A stretch of DNA of 64,000 bases from an uncultured Actinomycetota bacterium (GTDB taxonomy: Bacteria > Actinomycetota > Actinomycetes > Mycobacteriales > Mycobacteriaceae). The translations under genes and the position numbers were made by a program. A model generated the notes under the pieces. It searched no databases. It was not told the DNA's origin and saw only the letters and a list, made by a program, of their open reading frames with translations. The DNA lies in assembly GCA_963845595.1 (NCBI GenBank), contig CAWJSU010000003.1:353045-417044 (forward strand), written 5' to 3'. Of the stretch, positions 1-18,494 are shown one piece after another (the stretch's first letter is position 1; each line of letters opens with the position of its first letter).

Positions 1-1404
1 GAGATCGGCAAACGCGACATCTACGCCGACAACCGGTTGGGGCTCTTCCCGTTCCGGCGCAACCTCACGTTCTACGCCGTCGACCTGGGGCTGCTGTCGT
101 ACAGCCATCCGGACCGGTTCCGAGACCTGTTGACCACGGTGTACCAACTCGTCGCGGACGACTCGCTGCCGGTACCGGAGTGCACGCACTACCCACTCGC
201 CGACGCCGCCACGGCCATTCGCCTGATGAGCGGCGCCCGGCACACCGGCAAGCTGGTGCTCGATGTCCCGCACGCCGGCCGGGGCCGCGTGGTGCTGCCG
301 CCGGACCAAGCCCCGGTCTTCAGGCGCGACGGCGCATACATCGTCACCGGCGGGCTAGGCGGCCTGGGGTTGTTTCTGGCCGAGAAGATGGCTTCTCCAG
401 GTTCCGGTCCAGGTTCCGGTCCAGGTTCCGGTCCGGGTTCCGGGATCGGCTGCGGGCGGATCGTGCTGTCCTCGCGCTCGCAGCCAACTCAGCGGGCGCT
501 GGAGACGATCGAGTGTATCCGCGCCATGGGTGCCGATGTCGTGGTGGAGTGTGGCGACATCACGGAACCCGGCACCGCGCAGCGGTTGGTTGCCGTTGCG
601 ACCGCCACCGGGCTTCGGGTGCGCGGCGTGCTGCATGCGGCGGGCGTGATCGAGGACGCAACACTGACCAATATCACCGACGAGCTCATCGAGCGCGACT
701 GGGCGCCAAAGGTTTTCGGTGCCTGGAACTTGCACCGCGCCCTGCAGGAGGCCGAGCAGCCGTTGGACTGGTTCTGCTCTTTCTCCTCGGCGGCCGCGAT
801 GGTGGGCTCGCCCGGACAAGGTGCCTACGCCGCGGCCAACAGCTGGCTGGACGCCTTCACGCTGTGGCGCCGGGCTCAACGCCTGCCGGCCACCTCGATC
901 GCATGGGGCGCGTGGGGCCAGATCGGGCGTGGCACCGCCCTGGCGGAGGGCGCCGGCCTTGCCATCACTCCCGACGAGGGCGCTTACGCGTTCGAGGCGC
1001 TGCTGCGCCACGACCGCGCCTGCACCGGCTACGCGCCGATCACGGGAACCCCGTGGCTGACCGCCTTCGCCCAACGCAGCCCGTTCGCCGAGGCGTTCCG
1101 GGCCTCCCGGCAAAACGCCGGGGGCACCAGCAAACTGCGCGCCGAGCTGGACGAGCTGCCCCTGGACGAGTGGCCCCTGCGGCTGCGGCGTCTGATCTCC
1201 GATCACGTCAGCCTGATCGTGCGTCACAGCATCGATCCCGACCGGCACCTCTCCGAGTGCGGCATCGACTCGCTGGGTGCCCTCGAACTATGCACCCGCA
1301 TCGAGACCGAAACGGGAATACGCGTCAGGGCCACCGAAATCACGACCATTCGGGGTTTGGCGGGATTGCTGTGCGAAAAGCTGGCGCCGGCGGAGACTGC
1401 TTGA
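1..1404 (+). CDS. Mas-like type I polyketide synthase, C-terminal part (end of ER, KR, ACP); 5'-truncated by window edge
   Basis: Frame open from base 1 ([17 protein letters not shown] end); KR motifs [41 protein letters not shown]; [13 protein letters not shown] with the phosphopantetheine Ser. Confidence 0.9.
397..444 (+). repeat. 12-bp tandem repeat (CCAGGTTCCGGT) x4, in frame, encoding (PGSG)4 in the KR domain
   Basis: Units at 397, 409, 421 and a degenerate one at 433. Confidence 0.9.
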
Positions 1405-1677: not shown

Positions 1678-3447
1678 ATGAGCGACGTGCTGCGATACCG
1701 GGTGGCGGTGCTGCCCGAACGCCATGAATTGGCGGTCACCATCACAGTCCCGTCCAGTGTCGGCGGCGTGACTTTACAACTTCAGTCGCCGACCTGGGTG
1801 CCTGGGGATTATTCGTTCAACCCATACGGCCGGGACGTGTTCGACGTCAAAGCCACGGACCTGGAAAGCGGCGCCGCGCTTGCGGTTCGACGGCAGGGAT
1901 GGCAGGGCCACGTTGTGCAGCGGGGCGGCGGCGACGTCGTGATCCACCACCGCGCCTACTGCTCCTCCTGGGAATTCAGCGAGGCGTGCGGCATCGTGGG
2001 TGATCGCGCCGCCGTCGTCACCGGGGCGCGCTATCTCTACGTCGGTGACTATGACGGCCCCTGCCAAGTGACCTACGACCTTCCGGAAGGTTGGGCACTA
2101 CATCACCCGTCCGGGGCTCTGCAGGTGAGGGAATTCACTTGGGAGTACCCCAGCTATCTGATCCTGCTCGACACACCGGTGTGCATGGGCAGCTTCGAGA
2201 AGCTCGTCAGTGATGTGCGCGGAACCGCCTTCTACCATGTCTTCATCGATGCGAGCGTGCTTGCGGCCGCCTCTCGACGTGGCTTCGTCGAACAGGTCGA
2301 CGCCGTCAGCACCCGCTACCACACGATGTTCGGGGGCTTCCCGTTCGAGGACTACACCTTCATCTATGGCTGTAATCCCAAGGCGGACTGGGGACTTGAG
2401 CACCTCACGTCGACCATGGTCGGCCTGGACGTGAACGTGTTCACCAACAATGACGCGAAGGCCACCGGCATCCGCACCTGCGCCCACGAACTTTTTCACG
2501 CCTGGAACGTCCGCCGGCTGCGCCCCGCCCCCCTCGAGCACCTGGATCTGGTCGGCGGGGACTTCACCGACGGGCTCTGGCTGGCCGAAGGATTTACCCG
2601 CTACTACGAATTCCTCACCTGCACCCGCACCGGCGTCTACACACCGGAGCAGTTCTTCAGCACGGTCGTCAACTATTACCGGCACCTGGAAGTGCTGCCC
2701 GCCTACCACCAGGTCAGCGCGGTCGATGCCTCGCTGGCGACCTTCCTCAATCACGGCAAAAAGTACCCGGGGCGGGTCAACAACTGCATCGACTACTACG
2801 ACAAAGGAATGCTCATCGCTTTCGGCGCTGACAGCGTTTTGCGCGCCGACAATTCCGGCACCCTGGATGAGGCCTTCGCCAACTTTTACACACGCTTTGC
2901 CGGACGCGGCGCCGGCTACACCTGCGCCGAGGTGCGGGATTTTTTCGAGGAGGTCCACCCCGGGCTGGGCTCACGGTTGTACAGGGAAGCCACCGAAGTC
3001 GCCGGATTGGATGTGGCTGGCCTGCTTGGCCGGCTCGGTTTCCGCGTGGACTACGAGACGGTTCCCTACCTCGGGCTCGTTCTGGCCAACGACACCGGCC
3101 CCGTCATTTACGGGGTCCTCGACACCGGCCCGGCCGCCGCGACCGGCATCGCCCCCGAGGACGTTGTGATCGCGATCGACGGCCTGTCCTTCGACTGCGA
3201 CGCGTTGAAGTGGGCGATCGGCAATCAGCAGAAGGTCGGGCTCACCGTGTCCCGGGGTAACCAGATCCTCACCTACCACACCGGCGTCAGACCGCGATCA
3301 CAGATCGGCCAGCTCAGCTGGATCGGGGACCAACAGCAGGCCAACCTCATCCAGGCGTGGCTTGACCAGGAATTCCACCCCGCGTCGGAGCAGGTGTTCC
3401 CGCTCGACTTCTACTCCAACTTCCACGGCCTCGAGACCGTGCTCTGA
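1678..3447 (+). CDS. M61 family (glycyl) aminopeptidase with C-terminal PDZ domain
   Basis: N-terminal SPTWVPGDY motif, GLEHLTST, zinc motif AHELFHAWNVRRLRP, LWLAEGFTRYY, YYDKG, PDZ-like GPAAATGIAPEDVVIAIDG; ATG at 1678 preferred over the TTG at 1591. Confidence 0.88.
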   Translation: MSDVLRYRVAVLPERHELAVTITVPSSVGGVTLQLQSPTWVPGDYSFNPYGRDVFDVKATDLESGAALAVRRQGWQGHVVQRGGGDVVIHHRAYCSSWEFSEACGIVGDRAAVVTGARYLYVGDYDGPCQVTYDLPEGWALHHPSGALQVREFTWEYPSYLILLDTPVCMGSFEKLVSDVRGTAFYHVFIDASVLAAASRRGFVEQVDAVSTRYHTMFGGFPFEDYTFIYGCNPKADWGLEHLTSTMVGLDVNVFTNNDAKATGIRTCAHELFHAWNVRRLRPAPLEHLDLVGGDFTDGLWLAEGFTRYYEFLTCTRTGVYTPEQFFSTVVNYYRHLEVLPAYHQVSAVDASLATFLNHGKKYPGRVNNCIDYYDKGMLIAFGADSVLRADNSGTLDEAFANFYTRFAGRGAGYTCAEVRDFFEEVHPGLGSRLYREATEVAGLDVAGLLGRLGFRVDYETVPYLGLVLANDTGPVIYGVLDTGPAAATGIAPEDVVIAIDGLSFDCDALKWAIGNQQKVGLTVSRGNQILTYHTGVRPRSQIGQLSWIGDQQQANLIQAWLDQEFHPASEQVFPLDFYSNFHGLETVL

Positions 3448-3532
3448 CATTGCATCGGCGGCGACCAGGCAGCTGGGACACAGCCCAGCCCCGCTTACCA
3501 TTTCGCCGGCAGGTTGTTCCACGTGCGCGCCC

Positions 3533-4690
3533 TCAGCCGGCGTGAATGCGTGCTGGGGGCAGTCGGTTCGGCATGCCCAGCTGGGTACCCGTGCGTCTGC
3601 GCCGCCAGAACGGTGAGCCCGCCCACCGTTGCTCGAGCTGATAGAAGTGGTTGCGGTTGGCTGTGTACTCTTCGAAATCGGCCGACACCGCCGCCGCATA
3701 GTCGGGGCCTGGGTCTTGGTCGGAGGACAATGCTTCGGTGAGGAAATCTGCCGCGCGCAGGCCGTTTTCGAGTGCGTGTTGAATGCCGAGTGAAGACAGG
3801 GGGTCGTGGCACGCGGCGGCATCGCCCACCGCCAGCCAGCGGGTGCCGGCGACCCGATCGAGCAGGTAGGAGACGCCGGCTCGGACGGTGAGGCTGCCGC
3901 GCAGAAAGCGGCAGCCGTCGAGCCGGGCGGCGATGTGCCGGGTGCCCAGCAGTGCGGCCAGCCACGTCTGGTCTCGAGCCAGCGCCTGCCGGCGCACGAT
4001 GTCGGGGTCTGAGGCGAAAGCCACTGCGAGCCGGCGGCGTGGCAGCGGCGCTGCATACCACCAGCCGTCTTCGACGGCTTCGAGCATGGTCAATTGCAGC
4101 GATGACGATCCGCTCGAGGTGTCGAAGAACCCGTAGATGAAGGTCAAACGATCAAGTAGACGCGGTGCGGCGCCCGCGCGTCGAGCCACCGCCGCGCGGT
4201 TTCCGGCTGCGTCAACAACGAAGCGCGCATCGATCGACCCGCGGGCGCCGCGACCATCCTGAACTTGAAGTCGCATGGAGTCAGGATAATCCTCGGAGCA
4301 GCCGATCACGGTGCCCGAATAATGCTGTACACCAGATGCTTTCGCTTGCAACAACAGGAAGGCGTCGAAGCGCGGCCGGTCCAGATGCCATCCCGGCCCG
4401 TAGGGACTGAGAAGAAAATCGTTGTGCCCCAGCGTGTCGCTGCCCCAACTTGAGCAGCTACCCAAGCACGGTTCGTGGCCGTCCTGACGGAAAGCCTCCC
4501 AGAGCTCCAGCTTGCTCAGGACAACGCTGGCCGCGGGTACCAAAGTCTCCCCGACACGTGGCCGGTGATGGACCGCAGGGTCGATCACGCAGATGTTGGT
4601 AAACCCCCGGCGCCGCAGCGCTATTGCGGTCGCACATCCCGCGGGTCCGCCGCCGACGACCGCAACGTCATAGATCTGCTGTGCGCTCAG
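3533..4690 (-). CDS. LodB/GoxB-type FAD-dependent oxidoreductase (probable CTQ cofactor maturation flavoprotein)
   Basis: YDVAVVGGGPAG Rossmann motif, GETL, GWHLDRPRFD, FVVDAAG, GWWYAAPLP, WLAVGDAA.CHDPLSSLGI; directly downstream of a LodA-like gene; start uncertain (CTG 4690 or GTG 4762). Confidence 0.8.
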   Translation of the reverse strand: MSAQQIYDVAVVGGGPAGCATAIALRRRGFTNICVIDPAVHHRPRVGETLVPAASVVLSKLELWEAFRQDGHEPCLGSCSSWGSDTLGHNDFLLSPYGPGWHLDRPRFDAFLLLQAKASGVQHYSGTVIGCSEDYPDSMRLQVQDGRGARGSIDARFVVDAAGNRAAVARRAGAAPRLLDRLTFIYGFFDTSSGSSSLQLTMLEAVEDGWWYAAPLPRRRLAVAFASDPDIVRRQALARDQTWLAALLGTRHIAARLDGCRFLRGSLTVRAGVSYLLDRVAGTRWLAVGDAAACHDPLSSLGIQHALENGLRAADFLTEALSSDQDPGPDYAAAVSADFEEYTANRNHFYQLEQRWAGSPFWRRRRTGTQLGMPNRLPPARIHAG

Positions 4691-7600
4691 TGAATGGCCC
4701 CCATCCCGTAGATCTTTCCCGTGGGATGCAGGTCGACCATGGCCGACGGCGTGGTGAGCCACATAGTGAACGGCACTTCCCCCACCAGCTTCGCGCCATC
4801 TTTGATCCAATCGCGCACAACGTCGCGGTAGGTCCCGGTCAGCGGCGATTTGGCGTTGAGGCCAAATGCTTCGCCCATCGGCCCTTTCGGGGCGATCAGT
4901 TGGGTGAAGAAGCGGCTTTGCGCCGGCTTTCCGCGTGTGATCATCCCGTTTTCGGGCAGCGCCAGAGCCTCCATGAGCGCGTGATTAGATTGTTCGAACC
5001 ACCACGTCATGGTGTGCGCGACACCGTCTGGATCGAACAACATCACGGTTCGATGGCCCGGGACACCCTGTTGTACTTCCCGGAGTTGGGTGATGAGTTC
5101 ATCCATGGCCAGAGGCGCCGGCAGTCCTGTTGGGGTGGGCGGCGGGGTTTGGGCCAGCGATTGCGTGTAAGCCGCCCATAGTGCGATTTCGTCGTCGGTG
5201 AATACCCGAAACATCGGGCCGGTCTCGAAGTTCATCGCGGCGTGCAACCGGCTGTTGGCCCAGTCGCCGGGGGTGATCCAGGCGTAGCGCACTAGGGCAT
5301 CCAGGAATCCGGATGGGTTGGAGAACCATTCGTCAATTCGGCTGGGGCCAAGCATGCGCTGTTGATGATTGCGGCTGCCGTAGGGCGCCTTTCGGCGGAT
5401 CATCTCGATCACTTGGTCGCGCAGCAGAGGTGGCTTGTCGGGATGGACTAGGTTCTTGAGTTTCTGACCGAACGAGTTTTCGGGGTCAAACGGAATGCCC
5501 CCAAAGGCCACGAACCCGTTCCAGATTCGCCGCCACCTGCTCTGAACACCCTTCTCTCCGCCATGGGTCCGCATGATTTGCAGCGACAGGCGCACGGCGT
5601 CGGCGGCACGTCGACCATGGCCGTTCACGGAGTTATCGATACCGATATGCATGACATAGAAGTGGGGATCAATCCCGTGGTATTTCAGCAGGTCTCGCGT
5701 CGGCTTGAGTTGCACGACATCCCATTCCAGCATCAGGGTCATGCCGAGGATCTCGGGATAGTACTCCTCGGTGAACTGCGAGATCGCCAACTGGAACGCC
5801 GGTACCAGGAAAGCGCTGTCAATGAACTGCGGGTCGAACGCAAAATCGCGGCTTTCGATGGGCGGCGGGTAGAAGCCGACGCTGTGGCACAGATCCCGGT
5901 AAATGTTGCAGTGGTTCTTGGCGATTTCGCCGTCGCCGAGCTCGTCCATGAAAATGGAGTACAGGATCGCCTGCACATCGTCCATCGGGCCGGTGCGGCC
6001 GATGTTTCGCAGCCACGCACCGTCGACGAGGTTGAACGGGGCCCACTGTTTGATCCGGGTGACGACATCGTCGTAGCTGCGAAAGACCGGGTCTGCTCCC
6101 GGATCGCTGTTGTCGGCCTCATCGACGAATCGTTGATAGATCAGCTCAAGGCGCTCCTGGAAGTCCTGCTCTGAGTAGCGGAAGAAGAGCTGATCTGCCG
6201 GGCACTTGTTGGGAGAGTTGGAAAACTCCTCGGCCTGTTTCAGCCAGTAATCAACGTAGGCGCGTGCGTCATCAAGAACTTCGGGATGGTTATTGACGTT
6301 CAGCAGCTTGTAGAACAGCTCCCGCGGGTCGTATTGGCTCGGATCCGGTTTATCCATATCCGTGCTGCTCGACAGGTTCGGAAAGGCTGCCACCGGTGTG
6401 CGCCCGGTGTCATCGAGCTGGCTTGCCACTTCGAGATACCACTGCGGTTCCAACGAAGGGTGGTGCTGATCGATTGCGGGCGCCTGCAGGACCACGCCGA
6501 TGCGGTGCCAATTTTTGAGCATGTCGCGGCGTTCTTGAAAGCGTCCCCAGTTCTCGGCGTCGTATGCGTCGGTACCCTCACCGCGAACCGACCAGAGCTG
6601 CTTGCCCAGCACGGGGGCTTTGGTTCCATCGGGCAGCACACCCAGGGTGACGTCGGCGGCCGCGTAGACGGCGACCGGACGCTGGGCCGGCCATGACCAG
6701 AACAGGGTCCGATTGCCTTTTGGATTGGGGTCGGGCGGATGGGTGGCGCAGGAGTTGTAATCGGTGTGCCAGGGCAGCGCCATGAATTTGGTCAGGTCGC
6801 CGGGCTCCAGCCCCTCATCATTGTGCCGGGGAACGTAACCGCACGACAGGACGGGCCCGGCGGCGTCGTGGCCGGGGTCGTAGTTGAGGTTTTTGCTCTT
6901 GACCCGAAACGGGCCCGCTCCCGACGTTTGCCACGGCTGGACATACAGTTTCGGCTCCCGCATGACGAAGGTGAGGTCGATGCCCGGGCTGAAACGCCCG
7001 CCCAGGCAGTTGACGAAAGTCGCCTTGTCCAGTGCTTCACCCGGGCCCAGCGCGTGACCGGATCCCGGGGCGAAATGGTCGAAACCTTCGCTCCAGCGCT
7101 GCAGGAAGAAGTACTGGGTCCGGCGCAACGTCAGGAAGGAATCCTGTCCCTCGCCGAGGTGCAACGGCATCAACGACGTGTTGGCTTGGTCGTCAGGGCA
7201 CCCCGGAGTACGAAATACCGCCTTGATTCCGGCAAGCTCTGTGGCGGTCGGATCGTCTTTTGCGGTAATGTCCGCCAGCCGTTTGTGAGCCGATATGGCG
7301 TGCGCGTTGAGGTTCGTTGTCCAGTGCTGCAGCACGGCGCTTTGGAAAATCGGTGCGATTTGATCGTCGAACGTGGGCTTATACGAGTCCTGGTAGCCGC
7401 CGCGGGCGGCGTCGTAGATATCCGGGGCCAGGCCAAGCTGCCGCACCCAACAGTCGTAGACGTCGTCCCACAGCGACACAACGTTGAGGATCTGGGGTGC
7501 ATAAGCGGGATCGGTGGCAGCCACCCACGCGCCATGGGCGGTCACGCGGGTGCCGTCGTCGAAGACCACGGTGGCTGATACCGGGCCGTCGGAGGTGTCA

Positions 7601-8550
7601 TCGAACCACTGATCGTTGTTCACGTCATCGCACAGGTGAACCGGGGCCTTCGCCCCGAAGCCGGCGGCGCGGCCGTATCCACCGACAACCAGCAGCCGTC
7701 CGCCGTCATCGGTGAGCAACTCACCGAGAGTATCGATGGGGCCGGCAGGGCAGTCCATATCGGGGAATGAGTTGTCGGGAAACAACTTCGGATAGCGATC
7801 CAGAGAGACGACTTCGTGCCGGCCCGCGTCGTAATAGGACGCGGCGGTGGCGTCATCGAAATTGACCCGCGGCGCCGAGCGACCAGATACGGTCCGCGGG
7901 CCGGGATCGATGGTCAACTGCTGCAGCCGTACAGGATCATCGAGTACAGCGATCAGGCCCTTGACTGTTGGCTCGTTTGGCGGCGACGCCGGTGGCGTGC
8001 AATCGGCCGTTCCCTTGGGGAACTGCGGGTTTCGGATCTGGGGGTCTTTCTCTCCGGTGTAGGTCACCATCGGGCCTGCCTCGTCCAACCGAAAGGTGTT
8101 GGCTTTCTTGTTGGCCAGGTGCACTGTCCAGATGATGTCCTGCACGGTTTTCCCGTCGATGGTTGCGCCGATGAAGACTTCTGTTCCGTCCCCGCGGGGC
8201 CATGGTTCCTCGGCCAGCGAGGGGTAGGCGAAGATGCGGAAGCGGGCAGCCTGACGCTTGCGGGCTCCGTGACTGTCCCGCAAATCCGAGCTGCGGATCG
8301 TTTCGGGGCTGTCAGCGTTGGCGTCAGCGCGGATCGGCAGACCGCCCATCGCATCGAGTGAATCCAACGTCGGGGCACCGGCCATGGTTTCTGGGGCGAT
8401 GACATATTCCTCGCTATTGCCGACTCTGGCGATACCGATGGCCGGATGGATCCGGAAGGTACCCATCGGCGGGGTGCCGGATTTCTTTCGTGCTTTCGGC
8501 GCCGCGGCGGAGCTTGTCTTGCCGCTAGCTTTGCTCGCTTGCCTGGTCAC
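4687..8550 (-). CDS. LodA/GoxA family CTQ-dependent oxidase fused to an iron-containing redox enzyme (HDO, heme-oxygenase-like diiron) domain
   Basis: LodA motifs FRIHPAIGIARVGNS, RQAARFRIF, GELLTDDGGRLLVVGG, WFDDTSDGPV, PGDLTKFMALPWHTDYNSC, WSWPAQRP; HDO motifs VDGAW, DELGDG..NH, LEW, MHIGIDN..GH; GTG 8550 preceded by GGGAG. Confidence 0.85.
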   Translation of the reverse strand: MTRQASKASGKTSSAAAPKARKKSGTPPMGTFRIHPAIGIARVGNSEEYVIAPETMAGAPTLDSLDAMGGLPIRADANADSPETIRSSDLRDSHGARKRQAARFRIFAYPSLAEEPWPRGDGTEVFIGATIDGKTVQDIIWTVHLANKKANTFRLDEAGPMVTYTGEKDPQIRNPQFPKGTADCTPPASPPNEPTVKGLIAVLDDPVRLQQLTIDPGPRTVSGRSAPRVNFDDATAASYYDAGRHEVVSLDRYPKLFPDNSFPDMDCPAGPIDTLGELLTDDGGRLLVVGGYGRAAGFGAKAPVHLCDDVNNDQWFDDTSDGPVSATVVFDDGTRVTAHGAWVAATDPAYAPQILNVVSLWDDVYDCWVRQLGLAPDIYDAARGGYQDSYKPTFDDQIAPIFQSAVLQHWTTNLNAHAISAHKRLADITAKDDPTATELAGIKAVFRTPGCPDDQANTSLMPLHLGEGQDSFLTLRRTQYFFLQRWSEGFDHFAPGSGHALGPGEALDKATFVNCLGGRFSPGIDLTFVMREPKLYVQPWQTSGAGPFRVKSKNLNYDPGHDAAGPVLSCGYVPRHNDEGLEPGDLTKFMALPWHTDYNSCATHPPDPNPKGNRTLFWSWPAQRPVAVYAAADVTLGVLPDGTKAPVLGKQLWSVRGEGTDAYDAENWGRFQERRDMLKNWHRIGVVLQAPAIDQHHPSLEPQWYLEVASQLDDTGRTPVAAFPNLSSSTDMDKPDPSQYDPRELFYKLLNVNNHPEVLDDARAYVDYWLKQAEEFSNSPNKCPADQLFFRYSEQDFQERLELIYQRFVDEADNSDPGADPVFRSYDDVVTRIKQWAPFNLVDGAWLRNIGRTGPMDDVQAILYSIFMDELGDGEIAKNHCNIYRDLCHSVGFYPPPIESRDFAFDPQFIDSAFLVPAFQLAISQFTEEYYPEILGMTLMLEWDVVQLKPTRDLLKYHGIDPHFYVMHIGIDNSVNGHGRRAADAVRLSLQIMRTHGGEKGVQSRWRRIWNGFVAFGGIPFDPENSFGQKLKNLVHPDKPPLLRDQVIEMIRRKAPYGSRNHQQRMLGPSRIDEWFSNPSGFLDALVRYAWITPGDWANSRLHAAMNFETGPMFRVFTDDEIALWAAYTQSLAQTPPPTPTGLPAPLAMDELITQLREVQQGVPGHRTVMLFDPDGVAHTMTWWFEQSNHALMEALALPENGMITRGKPAQSRFFTQLIAPKGPMGEAFGLNAKSPLTGTYRDVVRDWIKDGAKLVGEVPFTMWLTTPSAMVDLHPTGKIYGMGAIH

Positions 8551-8698
8551 TGTCCGCTCCCGTCTTCTCAAATCCCAACTGCCTCAACCGAAAATCAGAA
8601 GGTCAAACCCCTGGCGCTACCGCGAACCGTCAATCGTGAGCCACGTCGGGATAGACGCCCGACCGTGTCCACACCGCAGACCGCGCCGGATCCGTTGA

Positions 8699-10666
8699 CT
8701 ATTTCGGATCCCATCTCGAATACCGTGGGTAGTTATCGTATTTAAAGCCACTTACAAATTCTGCACCGGTGTTTTTGGCGATGTGGATGACGGCGTCGAT
8801 TGCCATCCGCATCGCAGGTTCGGTCCAACCCCCTTCCACCGAATATGCTTCGCCTGCACAATAGACGTGCGACTCCGCACTATGGTCTTGGTTGTACCTT
8901 AGCAACGTGTAGTCGTGTTCCCAACTTCGAGACCGTGTCAGTTTGGCGCAACCGCGGTACGTTGGCATCTTGGCCCAATGAATGACGCTCGGCTGGTCGC
9001 GATTGACGTAAGGCGAGATTGGCCTGTTGCGGGACTGCATGAGAATATCGTCGAGCTTGGTAAGGCAGCGCCGCGCGAGTGCTTCATCACTCGTCGATGC
9101 CAGTAGCTTGTTGGCGTCGTCCTCCCACGTATAACTAGCCAGCAGCACGCCCGGATCCGAGAACGCCTTGGTGGTCACTCCATAGCCATAAACACCCTGG
9201 ACGAACGTATCCGTGACCAGTGTTTGCGGGATGAATGGATCACCTGCAGGATTGAGCTCCTCCCAAAAGCGCCGAGTGAGCGGGAAAAACACCTTGCAAC
9301 TCGTGATCCAGTGCGACATCGCGACAGCGGCCTGCATGTTGAACGGCATGATGTGAGCGTCGAATCCTTCGAAGTTGATACTCATCTGCAGGGCCCAAGT
9401 CGAAGGAGTGATGACCACCGCGTCGTAGTCATTCTTGCGGGCTTTCGATTCGACGCGGACTCTTCCATCGTCGAGATGAGTGATTTTTTCGACACCGGTG
9501 CGGGTGTACAGGTTGACGTCATAGTCCGTCGATTGGATCGCGTCATACAAAGAGTCCGAGTCAACGACGCCGCTCTTGACAGGCTCATAGAAGAGGCATT
9601 CGGCGAAGGACTGCACCCCTAAATACTCGGGTGGCTGCAAGGAATGACCGAGGCTATCGGTTGGACGGGAGTCGAATTCTGGGCCCGGAGCATAGTCGCC
9701 GTCGGTGCCGAACTTGCCCTGGATCAACCGATGCCCCGACCCATAACCGAAGAGCAGCGTGCGTATCGGAAACAGACACGAGATGTCGTAGAACGCTCCC
9801 CAGCCGCCGTCACCCGCGCCAATCACGTAGAACAGGTTGGCTTCTTCGCCTTCCATCCCCAGCCCCCCGAAGTACCCGGGCTCTTTTTCGCTATAAGAGT
9901 CGATTTCCTTTTGGAAGACGAAGTCACGAAAGCTCATCGCCCAGTAATGCTGCACAAAGGCGTGCCAGAAGCCTTCCCATTCAACCCAACTTTGAGCATA
10001 TTTTTGCTGCGCAACACCTTTAAACAACTTCGCGAAGCGAGCCCATCTATGGTAAACAACTCTTAGCGTGTCGTCCGGCGGTTCTTGATCTTCTTTCTTC
10101 CAAATCAGAAGAGTGGGCGGCTTCTTGTCGTCCGGTTTAGGCTTCGCCATGTTCGGCCCATAACCACCGTTGACCCATACGCCGGTATCCGCTGTTGTGG
10201 CTCCCGGATTGGGAAACTCTTGCGTCTTGATCTTGAAGATTTTTCGGTAGAAGTCGAGGACGCAGTTTTGGCTTTCCACCCGATCGAAGAAAGGCATGCG
10301 CATAGCGCCCATCTCCATCGTTGTATGCTGGCCTTCGAGTCGCTTTGAGTAGGTCCGTCCGCCTATGCGCGAGCTGGCCTCATAAATATCGATGTTGATG
10401 TATCCGCAGCGAAAGAGTTCGCGCGCAGCGACGAGCCCAGCTACACCCGCCCCGATTATTGCGATACGTAACTTACGATCTTGATTTTCGGCTATCGACG
10501 AATCGTTTGCCAGCTCCAAGAGCCGATAATAGTTGAAGTTGAAATCCGCGGTATTCGGCCAGTGAAAACGCCAATCCTCTACTGGGTTTTGGCCGGCGGA
10601 CCCGCCGGCAGGCTGTGAACCGAGGGGTGCTTGCGCCTTGGAACCCTTGGTTGTTGAGGGTCGCAT
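8699..10666 (-). CDS. Flavin amine oxidase family, tryptophan/lysine 2-monooxygenase (IaaM/DavB)-like amino-acid oxidoreductase
   Basis: RIAIIGAGVAGLVAA, IGGRTYS, EMGAMRMP, SYTWEDDANKLL, AGEAYS.EGGW; ATG 10666 preceded by GGAAGGA. Confidence 0.8.
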   Translation of the reverse strand: MRPSTTKGSKAQAPLGSQPAGGSAGQNPVEDWRFHWPNTADFNFNYYRLLELANDSSIAENQDRKLRIAIIGAGVAGLVAARELFRCGYINIDIYEASSRIGGRTYSKRLEGQHTTMEMGAMRMPFFDRVESQNCVLDFYRKIFKIKTQEFPNPGATTADTGVWVNGGYGPNMAKPKPDDKKPPTLLIWKKEDQEPPDDTLRVVYHRWARFAKLFKGVAQQKYAQSWVEWEGFWHAFVQHYWAMSFRDFVFQKEIDSYSEKEPGYFGGLGMEGEEANLFYVIGAGDGGWGAFYDISCLFPIRTLLFGYGSGHRLIQGKFGTDGDYAPGPEFDSRPTDSLGHSLQPPEYLGVQSFAECLFYEPVKSGVVDSDSLYDAIQSTDYDVNLYTRTGVEKITHLDDGRVRVESKARKNDYDAVVITPSTWALQMSINFEGFDAHIMPFNMQAAVAMSHWITSCKVFFPLTRRFWEELNPAGDPFIPQTLVTDTFVQGVYGYGVTTKAFSDPGVLLASYTWEDDANKLLASTSDEALARRCLTKLDDILMQSRNRPISPYVNRDQPSVIHWAKMPTYRGCAKLTRSRSWEHDYTLLRYNQDHSAESHVYCAGEAYSVEGGWTEPAMRMAIDAVIHIAKNTGAEFVSGFKYDNYPRYSRWDPK

Positions 10667-10698
10667 CGTTGACCGTCCTTCCATGCGCTGTGGCGCTA

Positions 10699-10718
10699 CT
10701 CGCTATAACTCGCTATAA
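10699..10718. promoter_or_regulatory. 10-bp direct repeat CTCGCTATAA x2 upstream of the IaaM-like gene, candidate regulator binding site
   Basis: Exact tandem duplication ~35-50 bp upstream of the start codon; function inferred. Confidence 0.4.
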
Positions 10719-10858
10719 CAGGGTTTGGGTCGAATTGAAACGTCGGACACAACTTTTGGCCCCGTCGCCGGATCCCAGATCCGACCGACCGGCCGGCACG
10801 GTGGCGGCGCGACGTGCATCGTGTACCTCCCGCTGGGGGGCTGCGCTTGGGTGAGGGA

Positions 10859-13543
10859 CTAACTGTTGTGGGCTGCGGGTGTGTGGGTGTCGAAATTTCG
10901 TGCCGCGAGCGAACGCGCAACGTCAGCCTTCCCCTCGCGCACAATGCGCTTCAACGCCGAGGGCACATCGCCCTGTAGTAGGAAAGCGTGAGCAGCGTCG
11001 ACCGCGCTCGAGCTGACGTCCCAGGAGGGATAAAGATTTGTGGCAAGGGTCTTTTGGACCTCCGGGGAACGTGACTGCCAGACCGGCAGGATGTTGGCGA
11101 AGTACTGCGATGTGTAGTCGCGCAGTAGATCCTCCTGTCCAGGGGAGTTAAAGCCGGCGCTGATTGCGCGCGCCGCGCTGTTGGCGAGCTCGGTCTTGGT
11201 CATCAGTTGTTGCCAGGCCCCGTCTTTGACCTTGCGCTGCGGACGCGAGGCTCTGGCTTGTTCGGCGTTGCGCTGGCCTTGGTCAGACTTGTCGGCATTC
11301 GCCTGTGCGTCGATGAATGGAGATTCGGGGCTTTGCCCGTCGATGACTCCCGCTGTGGCCAGCCCGATGATAATGCGCCACCGCAGATCAATATCCACCT
11401 TCGGGTCGGGCAGATGCAGTTTTTCGGGATCGTCGGTGCTGAGCAGCGCCTGCAGCAGATCGGTATGCCGAGGAGAGAGGACCGAGGTGCATAGCGTGTT
11501 GACATAGGCGAGTTGTGCGTCCGAACCGGGTACCGCACCTTGGGCCAGGGTGTTCAGCGTGTCGGCAAACCCCGGCCAACCTACGTCCCGCGCCCACGCG
11601 GGGTCGGCGTAGTAGCGCAGCGCTGTTTGAGTCTGCGCCAGCAGTTGCTCGGCCACGGTGGGTTCGGTCTCGTACTGCACGCTTGTTGCCACTTGTTCGA
11701 CGTAGTCGCGGGCAGCCAGCTCTGCTCCGCGGGTCATCTCCCACAGGGTCGACCATGCCAGGCTGCGTGGCAGTGGGTCTTTGATGTCGCCGATCCGTGC
11801 TCGCACCGTCTGCAGCGATATTGGGTCCAGGCGCTGGGAACAATACGTCAAGTCCTCGTCGTTGACGAGGATCAGCTTGCCGCGCGAAAAACCAATCAGG
11901 GCAAGCACATCAGCCTTTTCACCTGCGATGGCTACCCGTTCTGGTCCGTGCACCCGGACCAGCTTGCCCGAGTCGTTATCGTCGTAGATGCCGATCGCAA
12001 TGTGGTGGGTGCGGAGCTGACCGGGCGGAGGTGTTACGTCGTCGGTGGGTTCCGGGGCGCCGGGGACCGCTCGGCTTTGGGTGACCGCGAAGCGGGTGAA
12101 TCTGTTGTCGGCGTCGACGTCGAAGTCGGCACGCAGCCTGTTGATTCCTGTTGTTTCCAGCCACTGGTGGCCCCATTCCGACAGGTCAACGCGAGCTGCC
12201 TTGCCCAGGGCGTCGCGTAGGTCCCTGAACGTCGCGTTCTGGTACTTGTGGGTGCCGAAATAGTCTCGTAGGCCTTGTAAGAATGCGTCTTGGCCGATGT
12301 ATGCGACTAATTGCTTGAGCACGCTGGCACCCTTGCGGTACGTGATGCCATCGAAGTTGTTGAGGACGTCTTCGAGGTTGTTCATGTCGGCGATCACGGG
12401 GTGTGTCGTAGGCATTTCGTCTTGGCGGTAAGCCTTTGCTTTTTCGGTGTTGGCGAACGTCGTCCAGGCTTGCTTGAAGTCGGTGGCGTCAGCCTGGCAC
12501 CAAAACGAGGCGTAGGTGGCGAATGATTCGTTGAGCCACAGGTCATCCCACCATTTCATGGTCACCAGGTCGCCGAACCACATGTGCGCCAGTTCATGGG
12601 CGATGGTGTCGGCGCGCTTCTCGTAGGCGGCGTTTGTCACTTTGCCGCGGAAGATCTGGTCTTCGGTGAGCACCACGGCGCCAACGTTTTCCATCCCGCT
12701 GTAGTTAAATTGCGGCACGAAGATTTGATCGTATTTGCCGAACGGGTAGGGCAAATGAAAGTTATTGTGGTAGAACGCAAAGCACTTTTTGGTCAAATCG
12801 AAAACCGCCTTGGCATCCATAAACTTCTCTAGCTTCTGGCGGCAGAAGATACGCAGGGGGATGCTGCCGAATTGGTCACCGTAGGTGTCGTCGTGGACCG
12901 CGTAGGGTCCGGCGATGAAGGCGACGAGATAGGTGCTCATCCGCTCGGTGGCCGCAAAGGTGTGCTTCGTTGCGCCACCGTCAGGCTCCATGTTGGTCGT
13001 CGCACCGCTGGATATGACCTGCCAGTGCTTGGGCGCGGTGACGGTCACATCGAACTGGGCTTTGAGGTCGGGCTGGTCAAAGCAGGCGAAGACTCGTCTG
13101 GCGTCTGCAGGCTCAAACTGGGTGTACAGGTAGACCTCATCGCGGTCTTGGTTTTCAACATCGTGGTCTTGCTTCTCAACGAAGCGGTGCAGGCCCTCAC
13201 CGGAATTGGAGTAGCTGCACAAGGCGTCGACAACCAGGACGTTGTGTCCGGTTAGTTCGCTCAGGTGTATCCGGCCGTCTTTTTCGACGCCGGAAGTATC
13301 GACGTCCTTTCCGTTGAGGGTGGCACTTCGGACCTCGGATGCGATGAGATCTACAAAGCTGCTGGCGCCTGGGGTTGCAATGAACTCCACTGTCGTAATA
13401 GAGCGGAACGTGCCTTGCCCCGGGCGGCCGCTTCCGTCTGTGACGTCGAGGTGGATTTGATAGCGGTTGACATTCCCGATGGCTCGGGCCCGCTCATCGG
13501 CGTCTTTGCGGGAGAGCTGCGGGGTGACTGTTTGTGCTTGCAC
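10859..13543 (-). CDS. pepN: Aminopeptidase N (M1 family), accessory lower-GC copy
   Basis: GEGLHRF, YLYTQFEPADARRVFACFDQPDLKA, SGMEN (GXMEN variant), HELAHMWFG, WLNESFA, FDGITYRKGASVLKQL; GTG start after GGAAGGA. Confidence 0.88.
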   Translation of the reverse strand: MQAQTVTPQLSRKDADERARAIGNVNRYQIHLDVTDGSGRPGQGTFRSITTVEFIATPGASSFVDLIASEVRSATLNGKDVDTSGVEKDGRIHLSELTGHNVLVVDALCSYSNSGEGLHRFVEKQDHDVENQDRDEVYLYTQFEPADARRVFACFDQPDLKAQFDVTVTAPKHWQVISSGATTNMEPDGGATKHTFAATERMSTYLVAFIAGPYAVHDDTYGDQFGSIPLRIFCRQKLEKFMDAKAVFDLTKKCFAFYHNNFHLPYPFGKYDQIFVPQFNYSGMENVGAVVLTEDQIFRGKVTNAAYEKRADTIAHELAHMWFGDLVTMKWWDDLWLNESFATYASFWCQADATDFKQAWTTFANTEKAKAYRQDEMPTTHPVIADMNNLEDVLNNFDGITYRKGASVLKQLVAYIGQDAFLQGLRDYFGTHKYQNATFRDLRDALGKAARVDLSEWGHQWLETTGINRLRADFDVDADNRFTRFAVTQSRAVPGAPEPTDDVTPPPGQLRTHHIAIGIYDDNDSGKLVRVHGPERVAIAGEKADVLALIGFSRGKLILVNDEDLTYCSQRLDPISLQTVRARIGDIKDPLPRSLAWSTLWEMTRGAELAARDYVEQVATSVQYETEPTVAEQLLAQTQTALRYYADPAWARDVGWPGFADTLNTLAQGAVPGSDAQLAYVNTLCTSVLSPRHTDLLQALLSTDDPEKLHLPDPKVDIDLRWRIIIGLATAGVIDGQSPESPFIDAQANADKSDQGQRNAEQARASRPQRKVKDGAWQQLMTKTELANSAARAISAGFNSPGQEDLLRDYTSQYFANILPVWQSRSPEVQKTLATNLYPSWDVSSSAVDAAHAFLLQGDVPSALKRIVREGKADVARSLAARNFDTHTPAAHNS

Positions 13544-14346
13544 TGTCTGTCCTTCCGTGGCCCCTCATTTGGCTGCAAACAGCATTCCAGAGACGCCGTC
13601 TCGGTTAAAGGCTAAAAGGCTTAATTCACCTCGACACTCAAACGGTCACTGCGCCCACCTCGCCGCCCGGCGAGCTGCCATCGCAGACGATCAACGGTTG
13701 GGTGTTGGGCGGCGTCACGTCGACCCGGGGACGGCGGCATCGTTTGCCTCCCATCTGATCAGCTGACGCGCGACTTGGCGGGCCGGGACCTGCGCTGCCT
13801 TAACCCCTGAGGCGCGATTGGTTGTCGACGTGTTGCGTGGTTTTGTTCCGCTCGAGTGATCGTGTCAAGGGCCACGACGGCTGACACGCGTAGTGCACTA
13901 CTCGTTCGTGCCCCGGCCCGTCGCGTCATCTCAATGAGCGGCTAGGCGTCCGCGGTGCCGGCGCGCTTACGGGCCCGGGCTCGTCGCGTCAGCGCGCGCG
14001 TTGTAGACGGTATGGCGGCTTGCTGAGGCCGAAGGCCTCGTGGTGCAGAACGATTCGTGGTTTGCTGATGTCGTGTTGAACGGCACTCGGTATGGGGATC
14101 GCCGCGTCACTGTGGGTGAGGACGTGCAGTCGAGTCGTGTGCGGCGGCATGATGACCACGATCGGGATCGGCCGAGGAACCGGCGCCTTGCCGGTACGGC
14201 GTTGGTGATCATGGTGACGGTCGCAGTCAGAAGGGACCTGCTGGGGCAGAACCGATTCCGAACGATCTGACAGCAACACCAGTTGGCCCCTTCCTGGCCA
14301 GGACGTGATAGACCACGCTGGTGGCTCATGCGCGCCGGAGCACCCG

Positions 14347-14928
14347 ATGATCGTCGTCCGTACGGCCGAGGCGGCCGAGCAGGCCCTGACCGAGGGCCAG
14401 CTGGTCTGCCCCCGCCGCGGATGCGGCGACACCTTGCAGCGGTGGGGATATGGCCGCAGCCGGCACGTCCGCAGCCTCGGCGCGGAGGTGATCGACGTGC
14501 GGCCCCAGCGGGTGCGTTGCCGCAGATGCGAAACCACCCATGTGCTTCTGCCAGCGGCGCTACAGCCACGCCGGGCCGATACCACAGAGGTGATCGGCAC
14601 CGCACTGGCCCACAAAGCCGCAGGCATCGGGCATCGGCGGATCGCAGCTGCGCTGAGCCGCTCACCGTCGACCGTGCGCCGCTGGCTACGGCGCGCCCGT
14701 GATCACGCCCATCTGACCCAGCTGTGGCAGTGCGGCGCCCAAGCACTCATCCGCCTCAACGCCGACGCATTCAACGACCTGCCCGGGACCGGCAAGCTAC
14801 TGCGCGACGCCCTGACCATGCTGGCCGCCGCGGCCTGGTGGACCCAGCGCCGGCTGGGCATCAACGAACCCCTGTGGACCCTCATCGGACTGCACAGCCA
14901 CGGCAGGCTTCTGGCGCCGCCGGGCTGA
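14347..14928 (+). CDS. Zinc-ribbon + helix-turn-helix protein (DUF6431-like, transposon-associated)
   Basis: CPRRGC ... CRRC Cys pairs, THVLLP, HTH GIGHRRIAAALSRSPSTVRRWLRR; no DDE domain. Confidence 0.65.
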   Translation: MIVVRTAEAAEQALTEGQLVCPRRGCGDTLQRWGYGRSRHVRSLGAEVIDVRPQRVRCRRCETTHVLLPAALQPRRADTTEVIGTALAHKAAGIGHRRIAAALSRSPSTVRRWLRRARDHAHLTQLWQCGAQALIRLNADAFNDLPGTGKLLRDALTMLAAAAWWTQRRLGINEPLWTLIGLHSHGRLLAPPG

Positions 14929-14985
14929 TTCGCCTTGCGGCCCGGCTCCTCGGCCGGGCTCACGCGCCTGCGCGCCCACCTGCCT

Positions 14986-15057
14986 CCGTCACCGTGAACA
15001 CCAACCCAGCCGTCAGTCCGTCACCGTGAACATCACGGCGTCACCGTGCACACCAAC
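14986..15057 (+). repeat. Three copies of CGTCACCGTG(A/C)ACA
   Basis: Copies at 14986, 15018 and 15038. Confidence 0.85.
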
Positions 15058-15116
15058 TGCCGCCGTTCGTCCTCACCGACAGTGCCGCCATCGTGTTCAT
15101 TTTGAATGCCAGGCAA

Positions 15117-17345: not shown

Positions 17346-17415
17346 CAATGTCGCCGATGTTGCGCGCGATGGCAAAGTCGGTCAACACAACCCGGCGGTC
17401 GCCGTCGGTATCTGT
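17346..17415 (-). pseudogene. Possible relic of a Ser/Thr kinase (subdomain VII, DFG-like)
   Basis: Translates as TDTDGDRRVVLTDFAIARNIGDI, resembling PknF/PknI-type RRILLADFGIAR; short and degenerate. Confidence 0.35.
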
Positions 17416-17484
17416 TGGCCGCCAGTAGATGCCGGCAGTGCGGGCCGTTGTCGACTGTGCGATTCGCGGCCTGAGCTTAGGGGT

Positions 17485-18054
17485 TCACCCTACGGTGACC
17501 TCCCCACGAGCATCTGCTCGCGCCGGAGTAAGCCGCTTCGACGGACGTTTCTGCCATCGCCAGCCCGACTGCCACCAGTTGGCCTGGACCGATGCAACGC
17601 GATGACATTGCAGCGCGAGGCCGGACCCGCCAATGACTATGTGATGGCAGCACGCGAACAAATGGAATTCGTCGAGCCGCGTCCGCAATATTGCAAATTT
17701 GACCAGCGGGCCAGTGAACGGCATTGGCGTGCGTTGGATCGACGATACAACGACACGGGCCTCTTGCACGGGATCGGACGAGGAGCTCAGGTCATAGAAG
17801 GCCCGCTCGACATCCGGGTAATCGATGGCGCTTTGGGAAACCTGGCCATCCACCTCAAAGATGGCGGCCCTGACCGGTTCGGCCTCTCGCATCACTCGGC
17901 GGATCGCCCACTCAAGAGCATCACGCTCGACCGTGCCCTCGATTTTCACGAATAGGCCAAGCTGCCACTCCGCGCTTGAGGTACCCGTCTCGTGCGCTAG
18001 CCATATGTCTAGCTGCCCGCGCGTCACCGGTAATGCCCGGTCGCCAAGCTCCAT
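17485..18054 (-). pseudogene. Truncated NRPS N-terminal condensation domain (GPL-type Mps/PstA-like)
   Basis: LPVTRGQLDIWLA, WQLGLFVKIEG, IQRTPMPFTGPL; HHxxxDG motif altered to HHIVIGG; similarity stops ~17575. Confidence 0.8.
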
Positions 18055-18100
18055 CCGACTCCCCCGCCCGATTCAGCCGGTTTACCCCGACTCAGTCGGT

Positions 18101-18331
18101 TTACCGATCAGGCCCCGAGCCCCCCGCCAATCTGTCGCGCAGACTCCTGGGCCGTATATCGGTCCAGTTCTGTTCGATGTAGTCCAGACACGCAGCGCGG
18201 TCCGCTTCGCCGTGAACCACCCGCCAGCCGGATGGCACTTCGGCGAAAGTCGGCCACAGGCTGTGTTGCTCCTCGTCGTTGACCAAGACAAAGAAGTTGC
18301 CGTTGTCGTCATCGAACGGATTGGTAGTCAC
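18101..18331 (-). CDS. mbtH: MbtH-like protein
   Basis: [37 protein letters not shown]. Confidence 0.95.
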
Positions 18332-18494
18332 GGATCCCCTCGGCTGGAGTGGTGCGCATCGACCCCAGACTTACCCCGAGGCGGCAACGTTAAACTATCA
18401 GGACCCAACTTCACGATCATGGTGACCGGGATCACGTCTGGATGGGTGACCTGTTGTGCGATGCTGTGCCGGCGCGCGAGCAGTGGGCTAACCC

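Follow-up and report, generated by a model that had tools for sequence, protein, structure and literature searches.

The question raised by this locus is whether five adjacent genes, encoding a quinoprotein oxidase, its putative maturase, a flavin amine oxidase and two aminopeptidases, constitute one pathway for the oxidation of amino acids. The genes lie in a stretch of 64,000 nucleotides (the window) from an uncultured Actinomycetota bacterium (assembly GCA_963845595.1, contig CAWJSU010000003.1, positions 353,045 to 417,044 of the forward strand), and a preliminary description had presented them as a candidate undescribed amino acid oxidation system. The oxidase is a fusion of a LodA/GoxA-type domain, with the cofactor cysteine tryptophylquinone (CTQ), and a heme-oxygenase-like diiron oxygenase (HDO) domain. 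It was found that the island carrying these genes is a lineage-specific variant of the lodAB-type quinoprotein operon, arranged around an uncharacterised but widespread CTQ-HDO fusion. The conserved unit of the island is the fusion together with the overlapping LodB gene. As a whole, the earlier interpretation was partly supported.

All five open reading frames (ORFs) were found where they had been placed, and their families were confirmed by Pfam. The four genes on the minus strand, encoding aminopeptidase N (PepN), the flavin amine oxidase (AmOx), the fusion and LodB, are co-oriented. The gap between PepN and AmOx is 174-192 bp and that between AmOx and the fusion is 127-232 bp, according to the start codon chosen, while the M61 aminopeptidase gene and LodB converge and are 85 bp apart. 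LodB overlaps the 3' end of the fusion gene by 76-124 nt because the only starts in its frame are GTG 4762 and TTG 4810. The ORF listing thus bore out the co-oriented layout, the gaps, the overlap and the convergent M61 gene of the preliminary description, and the family proposed for each gene held against Pfam, NCBIfam and relatives in the PDB. The LodB protein matched the NCBIfam models NF038171 LodB (E 2e-79), GoxB (E 9e-78) and QhpG (E 2e-51), all under the equivalog cutoffs, and carries a GxGxxG motif at residue 37. In tblastn searches of 80 loci, almost every one had a LodB homologue beside the fusion, and the fusion-LodB pair was present in at least six phyla. The coordinates of the features are given in Table 1.

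The fusion gene encodes 1,259-1,294 residues, which are numbered here from TTG 8571. Its probable start, MGTFRIHP, agrees with the family consensus, and the fusion is therefore taken to have no signal peptide. Pfam matched the protein to LodA_N (E 3e-53), LodA_C (E 8e-34) and Haem_oxygenas_2 (E 4e-18), and a search of the PDB matched it to LodA at E 2e-45. The predicted CTQ residues C608 and W627 and the active-site residue D604 were invariant in homologue sets of 19 and 41 sequences. In a full-length model of a Streptomyces-type homologue (1,119 residues), the N-terminal half matched LodA (2YMW, E 2e-24) and also GoxA; the predicted local distance difference test score (pLDDT) of this model was 76.7, with values below 50 in the CTQ loop. 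Among the NCBIfam equivalogs, the fusion scored 240 bits with NF038172 (cutoff 600) and 151 bits with NF038173 (cutoff 750). Because these scores are far below the LodA/GoxA cutoffs, the substrate specificity of the known enzymes is not transferable to the fusion. As judged by its sequence, the fusion is a member of the LodA/GoxA family and an orthologue of neither enzyme.

Antagonism through the release of H2O2, fed by peptides and comparable to that by Marinomonas LodA (marinocine), was one of the functions that had been proposed for the cluster. Antimicrobial roles are known for LodA and GoxA, both of which release H2O2 (PMC4417212, PMC4699246), and the CTQ site of the fusion is intact. However, no signal peptide was found on the N-termini inspected of M61 and of the S10 peptidases of related loci, nor on the predicted start of the fusion. 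Moreover, the oxidase is joined to a diiron domain that would use O2 or peroxide, much as other LodA proteins are joined to catalase-like domains, and the neighbouring genes are catabolic or biosynthetic and not export genes. Antagonism of this kind is therefore disfavoured and appears extremely improbable.

The C-terminal half of the fusion gave a profile match to the HDO domain of SznF (E 5.5e-4), and the six predicted ligands of its diiron site (three His and three carboxylates) were invariant in 41 sequences. An AlphaFold2 model of residues 750-1294 had a pLDDT of 89.4. The top folds returned by Foldseek for this model were those of SznF, HrmI, CADD, FlcD and BesC, PqqC, AetD and UndA matched as well, and all of these matches covered the HDO core only. 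The extension that follows the core gave no PDB match for its fold; it also accompanies the HDO domain in standalone proteins of 540-630 aa. GMGxVH, directly before the stop codon, is the terminus of every member of the family in both of its deep clades. The Gly, Met and terminal His of this motif are invariant, and the His is the last residue. Such an invariant terminus suggests a structural or catalytic role for the free C-terminus or its His. As a side observation, the HDO ligand motif DPHFYVMHIGID (5635-5670, minus strand; residues 968-979) fits the tyrosinase CuB-type pattern D-P-x-F-x-x-x-H-x-x-x-D, and the label "Tyrosinase copper-binding domain-containing protein" given to some homologues is probably a naming artefact of that motif.

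By sequence and by fold, the HDO half comes closest to the N-oxygenases SznF, HrmI and RohS. This is in favour of a biosynthetic cassette in which the HDO domain would act as an N-oxygenase and, in combination with the aldehyde made by the CTQ domain, would convert a diamino or aromatic amino acid to an N-O or N-N compound (an oxime, nitrone or nitro compound). The location of some relatives near genes for methyltransferases, opine dehydrogenases, PhyH and tyrosinase also agrees with this proposal. However, the similarity is remote (14-18% identity, template modelling score of 0.3-0.47), and C-C-cleaving HDOs matched as well in the same search. In addition, the fusion has no conserved association with genes for carriers, ligases or export, and its wide spread by horizontal transfer in the company of exopeptidases looks more catabolic. 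A cassette for N-oxygenation is thus considered very unlikely.

The distribution of the fusion was studied. More than 282 proteins matched its full-length architecture, with 55-87% identity in Pseudomonadota, Actinomycetota, Acidobacteriota and Planctomycetota; distant members (27-45%) were found in Myxococcota and cyanobacteria, and 121 genome loci were collected. A search with the HDO half returned 397 representatives of 50%-identity clusters at E<=1e-30, and the classes observed were LodA fusions of 1,100-1,413 aa, the standalone proteins mentioned above and proteins of 700-790 aa with an unknown N-terminus. In a maximum-likelihood tree of 54 fusion proteins, two deep clades with scrambled taxonomy were obtained, which indicates frequent horizontal transfer. 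Standalone HDO homologues (L079, L080 and G058) have as neighbours genes for RF-2, a DAG kinase, a CBS protein, an MFS protein and a BTAD regulator, which give no functional hint. In about 130 Ralstonia megaplasmid records, the HDO module has a homologue of 689 aa that stands alone and is 34-37% identical (locus L102, 7801-9870; R. solanacearum CP047137); the genes downstream of it encode an SGNH hydrolase, a proline dehydrogenase and an ATP-grasp protein.

The nearest relatives of the fusion were compared in their gene order. The locus with the closest fusion, L081 (87% identical), has the order PepN-AmOx-fusion-LodB, and L082 and L083 (85%) have PepN-AmOx-S10 peptidase-fusion-LodB-M61. The order S10-fusion-LodB-IpdC-like-M61 was found in L084-86 (75%), next to a relaxase, a resolvase and a transposase. 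Locus L097 (67%) has S10-fusion-LodB, and L095 (66%) has a gene similar to tyrosine decarboxylases dependent on pyridoxal phosphate, an M14 carboxypeptidase, a flavin amine oxidase, DAO, S10, the fusion and LodB. On the fusion tree, the window nests as (L095, L097, (L084, (L082, (L081, window)))). According to this tree, the clade had S10 from the outset and the branch of L081 and the window lost it, M61 was gained at the L084 node, and PepN and AmOx were gained at the L082 node. When the proteins of the window were searched by tblastn against the 80 loci, no orthologue of AmOx or M61 was found, and an M1 peptidase was found in one locus (Reyranella, L029). The preliminary description had counted a lack of co-occurrence in other genomes among the conditions that would refute the proposal; the five families do not co-occur outside relatives with at least 85% identity, and the five-gene set recurs only on the metagenome contigs L081-L083 (85-88% identical).

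Other genes recur beside the fusion over greater distances. S10 orthologues (61-77% identity) are located directly upstream of it in about 7 loci from 5-6 lineages, which belong to two subclades of one major clade, and in the other major clade a 36% identical S10 homologue is likewise directly upstream. The identity of the S10 orthologues tracks the divergence of the fusion itself. In a control set of 400 random Actinomycetota genomes, no S10 protein of >=60% identity was found, and only paralogues with 30-36% identity were present. A PsiD-like pyruvoyl decarboxylase adjoins the fusion-LodB pair in 13 loci from both major clades; its best match is the tryptophan decarboxylase of the psilocybin pathway (PDB 9JER, E 8e-67, compared with 5e-11 for true phosphatidylserine decarboxylases). 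An IpdC-like thiamine pyrophosphate enzyme, for which indolepyruvate/phenylpyruvate decarboxylases are by far the best families, is found near the fusion in 3 lineages. S53 peptidases are directly adjacent in Acetobacteraceae, Bradyrhizobium and a plasmid of Paraburkholderia caribensis, and the other adjacent peptidases belong to S8 (Actinoplanes), M48 (Sphingomonas), C69 (Massilia) and M1 (Reyranella).

Two natural fusions were also found. The protein P0387 (1,827 aa; L105, 228-5711) combines an S8 peptidase with LodA and HDO, is followed by a LodB-like gene and occurs on 3 contigs. The protein P0386 (1,499 aa; L104, 1085-5584) combines a flavin amine oxidase, a DOMON domain and HDO; the contig that encodes it is possibly eukaryote-like and also has an EF-hand gene. 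These proteins support a functional link of the oxidase with a peptidase and of HDO with an amine oxidase.

Two further loci merit description. In Bradyrhizobium campsiandrae (L018, 15145-20500), a second LodA-type gene (1,295 aa), a small gene of about 130 aa and a second LodB are located directly downstream of S53-LysR-IpdC-S10-fusion-LodB, and this second set resembles the "group ID" operons of 2015 with a small intervening gene. In Massilia frigida (L007, 9755-9892), a 46-residue PsiD-like remnant lies just upstream of the fusion and the decarboxylase is otherwise gone, which suggests its recent loss.

Peptidases may also be associated with CTQ enzymes for another reason, as in quinohemoprotein amine dehydrogenase, whose CTQ-bearing subunit is trimmed by the subtilisin-like protease QhpE. 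The peptidases beside the fusion (S10, S8, S53 and perhaps M61 and PepN) could likewise be maturation factors that process the quinoprotein. The N-terminal fusion of an S8 domain to LodA-HDO and the tight co-evolution of the S10 orthogroup with the fusion are consistent with this role, as is the homology of LodB to QhpG of the same biogenesis system (QhpG: PMC7876137). However, the window and L081 contain no S10 and their fusion is still intact, the associated peptidases are mostly exopeptidases of unrelated families (M1, M61, M14, C69 and S10), and the invariant encoded C-terminus GMGxVH needs no trimming. Processing of the quinoprotein would also leave the co-occurring amino acid decarboxylases unexplained. 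It is therefore regarded as unlikely that the peptidases are maturation factors.

The explanation preferred here, the chances of which appear evenly balanced, is that the fusion is the core of a cytoplasmic module in which the two domains act in tandem to oxidise amines or amino acids derived from peptides. Exopeptidases would free amino acids from peptides, and the amino acid would be decarboxylated or oxidised to a primary amine or a related compound, the best guess for the amino acid being an aromatic one and the alternative being lysine. The LodB-type flavoprotein would make CTQ from C608 and W627, and the CTQ domain would turn the amine into an aldehyde, NH3 and H2O2. The fused HDO domain would then perform a second oxidation on the same molecule, either using the aldehyde or imine or consuming the H2O2 produced nearby. 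The mycobacterial lineage would have added an extra PepN, M61 and a flavoenzyme similar to Trp/Lys-2-monooxygenases and would have lost the ancestral S10. We infer the substrate, the order of the steps, the product and the feeding of the core by PepN, AmOx and M61.

Several observations lead to this module. Because the HDO domain is paired either with a CTQ oxidase or with a flavin amine oxidase, it probably uses the common output of amine oxidases, namely the imine/aldehyde or H2O2; similar reasoning has been put forward for the catalase-like LodA fusions. Exopeptidases of unrelated folds and decarboxylases of amino acids or 2-oxoacids recur beside the fusion, which argues for a route from a peptide-derived amino acid to an amine and then through two oxidations. 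Aromatic substrates are hinted at because the PsiD-, IaaM-, IpdC- and TyrDC-like neighbours have best matches of the tryptophan or tyrosine type, and substrates of the lysine type also fit since LodA, HrmI and DavB all act on lysine. The peptide and amino acid theme that had been proposed for the five genes was thus retained in part: unrelated peptidases and decarboxylases adjoin the fusion in many phyla and an S8 peptidase is fused to it, but the exact five-gene pathway is unproven.

A bolder version of the tandem module was also considered. The fusion could be a self-sufficient tandem oxidase, in which H2O2 or the imine/aldehyde would be passed directly to the diiron site for a second oxidation and no external reductant would be required (a built-in peroxide shunt). 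Such a principle would have at least two evolutionary origins, one with CTQ and the other with flavin (P0386), and would underlie a mobile and widespread pathway by which peptide-derived aromatic amino acids, after decarboxylation of the PsiD, IpdC or IaaM type, would yield an auxin-like arylacetate, a nitrile or an oxime. This extended proposal is considered rather doubtful.

The genes accompanying the fusion-LodB pair in the window were characterised. PepN is a second, island-borne copy, and its paralogue on contig C5 is 59% identical. Its HEXXH-X18-E motif is intact (HELAH), and its exopeptidase motif is SGMEN and not GAMEN (residues about 283-287; 12700-12715 region, minus strand), with the substrate-amine-binding Glu kept. 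Orthologues of PepN with 83-88% identity are present in L081-L083. The probable start of M61 is ATG 1678 (MSDVLRYRV), in agreement with the L082 orthologue; the protein has an HELFH motif at residue 270, and its orthologues (78-86% identity) were found only in L082/L083 and L084-86.

For AmOx, the probable start is ATG 10666, and a GxGxxG motif is present at residue 72. Its top relatives in the PDB are tryptophan 2-monooxygenase (TMO; 4IV9, E 3e-31) and then the Pseudomonas L-amino acid oxidase/monooxygenase L-AAO/MOG (3WE0, E 4e-24). The EMGAMRMP motif of AmOx aligns with EMGAMRFP of TMO in the region of R98, which we take to be the carboxylate-binding Arg of the EMGAMR motif. AmOx matched no curated equivalog, the best being VioA with 32 bits (cutoff 600). 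Its gene has the lowest GC content in the island (0.548, with 0.648 at third codon positions). AmOx orthologues adjoin the fusion only in L081-L083; relatives with 68-70% identity are found in a fusion-free cluster on the mycobacterial contigs L092/L093, and AmOx relatives occur alone in cyanobacteria. The L092/L093 cluster, which is conserved, also encodes a PhyH dioxygenase, a class-III aminotransferase, an RraA-like protein, a P450 and an AMP-binding enzyme and may represent a separate small biosynthetic pathway.

A number of points weigh against the tandem module fed by its neighbours. AmOx looks like a late addition because of its foreign composition and the occurrence of its relatives in other contexts, and the synteny of AmOx, PepN and M61 in the close relatives is accounted for by shared ancestry alone. 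About a third of the close-clade loci contain no such neighbours at all. Peptidases are common genes, and the comparison with the genome background covers S10 alone. The aromatic hint consists of best-match names from sparsely sampled families. The reaction of the IaaM type yields an amide, which is no substrate for a CTQ enzyme unless the amino acid has a second amine. Finally, the low confidence of the predicted full-length model at the CTQ loop prevents it from revealing a channel between the two sites.

It is possible, if somewhat unlikely, that only the fusion and LodB cooperate and that the island carries PepN, the IaaM-like enzyme and M61 as unrelated cargo. The fusion-LodB pair is the sole universally conserved unit, AmOx has a separate compositional origin, the island is a mosaic beside mobile elements, and many relatives of the fusion have no such neighbours. 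However, the gene order is kept on three independent contigs (85-88%), even though the S10 gene between AmOx and the fusion varies, and functional analogues of the accessory enzymes recur around distant homologues of the fusion, one such analogue being fused to the oxidase. In the tandem module preferred here, PepN, AmOx and M61 are lineage-specific additions, and a functional link through the replacement of exopeptidases after the loss of S10 is plausible.

The setting of the island was examined. The host is a Mycobacterium, since its CysS is 89-90% identical to those of M. parmense and M. marinum, and its genome has 7.9 Mb. The GC content across the cluster was 0.58-0.62, compared with about 0.66-0.70 in the flanks, and the values for the other genes were 0.598 for PepN, 0.616 for the fusion, 0.636 for M61, 0.657 for LodB and 0.673 for cysS. 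The fusion gene was not found in the 36 same-genus genomes sampled, and neither M61 nor AmOx was found in 120 such genomes sampled for each. The lower-GC accessory DNA noticed earlier was thereby corroborated: an environmental Mycobacterium has acquired this island by horizontal transfer, and the composition of the island is a mosaic. The borders of the island are set only by composition and mobile elements. On the right, the core genes GDPD, SpoU methylase and cysS resume from 19959. A search for tRNA genes in the window found none. No near-identical plasmid DNA was found in support of a plasmid origin, the sole match being a 72% pepN fragment in Tsukamurella. A scan for consensus promoters and terminators gave 0 promoter-like sites and terminator-like sites at the level of shuffled sequence, such a scan being uninformative in this high-GC genome. 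The ORF 180-1601 was rejected as the left neighbour gene, as it is in the wrong frame over the ketoreductase/acyl carrier protein region of a polyketide synthase gene; therefore, its 8 genomic "copies" are full of stop codons.

Table 1. Positions of the features in the window, with the evidence for each.
Feature	Position	Strand	Evidence and remarks
Polyketide synthase gene, 3' end (enoylreductase tail, ketoreductase (KR), acyl carrier protein)	37..1404	+	Pfam KR 3e-50, ADH_zinc_N_2, PP-binding; left flank, outside the system
M61 (glycyl-type) metallo-aminopeptidase with C-terminal PDZ	1678..3447 (open from 1591)	+	Peptidase_M61 E 8e-26, M61_N 3e-19, PDZ
LodB/GoxB-type FAD monooxygenase, predicted CTQ maturase	3533..4762 (or 4810)	-	NCBIfam
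Fusion gene	4687-8466/8571	-
C-terminal extension of fusion, conserved, mostly helical	4687..5481	-	Residues about 1031-1294; ~260 residues
GMGxVH terminus	4690-4707	-
HDO domain of fusion	5482..6336	-	Residues about 746-1030; PF14518 E 4e-18
Predicted diiron ligand H985	5617-5619	-	Aligns to SznF H318
Predicted diiron ligand D979	5635-5637	-	Aligns to SznF D315
Predicted diiron ligand H975	5647-5649	-	Aligns to SznF H311
Predicted diiron ligand E949	5725-5727	-	Aligns to SznF E281
Predicted diiron ligand H887	5911-5913	-	Aligns to SznF H225
Predicted diiron ligand E877	5941-5943	-	Aligns to SznF E215
LodA/GoxA-type CTQ quinoprotein oxidase half of fusion	6337..8466	-	Residues about 36-745; LodA_N, LodA_C
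Predicted CTQ residue W627	6691-6693	-	Aligns to LodA W581
Predicted CTQ residue C608	6748-6750	-	Aligns to LodA C516
Active-site D604	6760-6762	-	Aligns to LodA D512
AmOx, flavin amine oxidase of the amino-acid 2-monooxygenase/oxidase family (IaaM/DavB-like)	8699..10684	-	Amino_oxidase E 2e-37
PepN, aminopeptidase N (M1), actinobacterial type	10859..13543	-	TIGR02412 886 bits, cutoff 591
Mobile-DNA right flank bounding the island	14305..19362		Pfam, Rfam
DUF6431/HTH gene	14305-14928	+	Pfam; mobile-DNA debris, right island border
Group II intron reverse transcriptase/maturase (RVT_1, GIIM)	15740-17263	+	Pfam; between island and core genes
Group II intron domain V/VI RNA	17246-17345	+	Rfam RF00029, 53 bits
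IS4-family transposase, N-terminal fragment	18538-19362	+	Pfam; right-border mobile debris

CTQ oxidases and HDO enzymes are young and chemically inventive families, and their fusion is abundant, with hundreds of proteins in at least six phyla, 55-65% identity between phyla and horizontal spread. The comparative data nominate aromatic amines or amino acids, lysine or cadaverine as candidate substrates and LodB, S10 and the PsiD-like decarboxylase as partners. If the two sites cooperate, the fusion would represent a new coupling of an H2O2-producing oxidase to diiron chemistry, which might reveal a new route of amino acid catabolism or of signal molecules in soil and plant-associated bacteria. 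In mycobacteria, it is rare, an accessory trait found in one environmental lineage and not a conserved pathway. The repeated location of the fusion-LodB pair next to peptidases and decarboxylases in relatives makes it a good lead for enzyme discovery but no proven pathway of five genes.

Known systems were compared with the island. The routes from tryptophan to auxin, through tryptamine, indole-3-acetamide or indole-3-pyruvate, have entry enzymes that are the best matches of the PsiD-, IaaM- and IpdC-like neighbours, respectively, and the CTQ domain could serve in them as the amine oxidase. However, this likeness lies in best-match names alone, all of them below equivalog thresholds, and neither an IaaH amidase nor an aldehyde dehydrogenase is conserved with the fusion. 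The qhp system shares with the island a CTQ enzyme and a dedicated flavin hydroxylase (the LodB-QhpG match given above), and an S8 peptidase is adjacent or fused in relatives of the island. In contrast to qhp, the island has no radical-SAM protein QhpD, small gamma subunit or exporter, and the peptidases are mostly exopeptidases of other families.

The HDOs SznF, HrmI and RohS (N-oxygenases), BesC, UndA, AetD and SktA (C-C cleavage or rearrangement) and CADD share PF14518 and the helical heme-oxygenase-like fold with the fusion. The identity to these enzymes is at most 18%, and the island-type HDO differs from them in its unique extension of about 260 residues with the invariant terminal His and in its covalent linkage to an H2O2-producing amine oxidase, which is CTQ-based or, in P0386, flavin-based.

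Fusions of LodA proteins with pfam14518 (5 proteins) and with the catalase-like pfam00199 were already tabulated in 2015 by Campillo-Brocal et al. (Table 3; PMC4417212), and the catalase-like domains are thought to remove H2O2 (PMC4417212). In the literature searched, no characterised LodA-HDO protein was found, nor was any paper joining LodA with heme-oxygenase-like enzymes. The designation of the system as undescribed should therefore be narrowed: the architecture had been listed, but none of its members has been characterised. The pfam14518 fusions of that survey likewise combine a LodA-like oxidase with a second redox domain, and their Burkholderia/Rhizobium type of 1,409-1,413 aa recurred in the present analysis. 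The survey gives a domain table only and places pfam14518 at the N-terminus, whereas the domain is C-terminal here.

The island is also similar to lodAB and goxAB, which in Marinomonas mediterranea encode the L-lysine epsilon-oxidase LodA and the glycine oxidase GoxA. The domains, the fold, the Cys and Trp of CTQ and the catalytic Asp are shared, as are the maturase gene directly downstream and the lack of a signal peptide. The island fusion differs from them in the additional HDO domain and extension of about 550 residues and in its actinobacterial, cytoplasmic context with peptidases.

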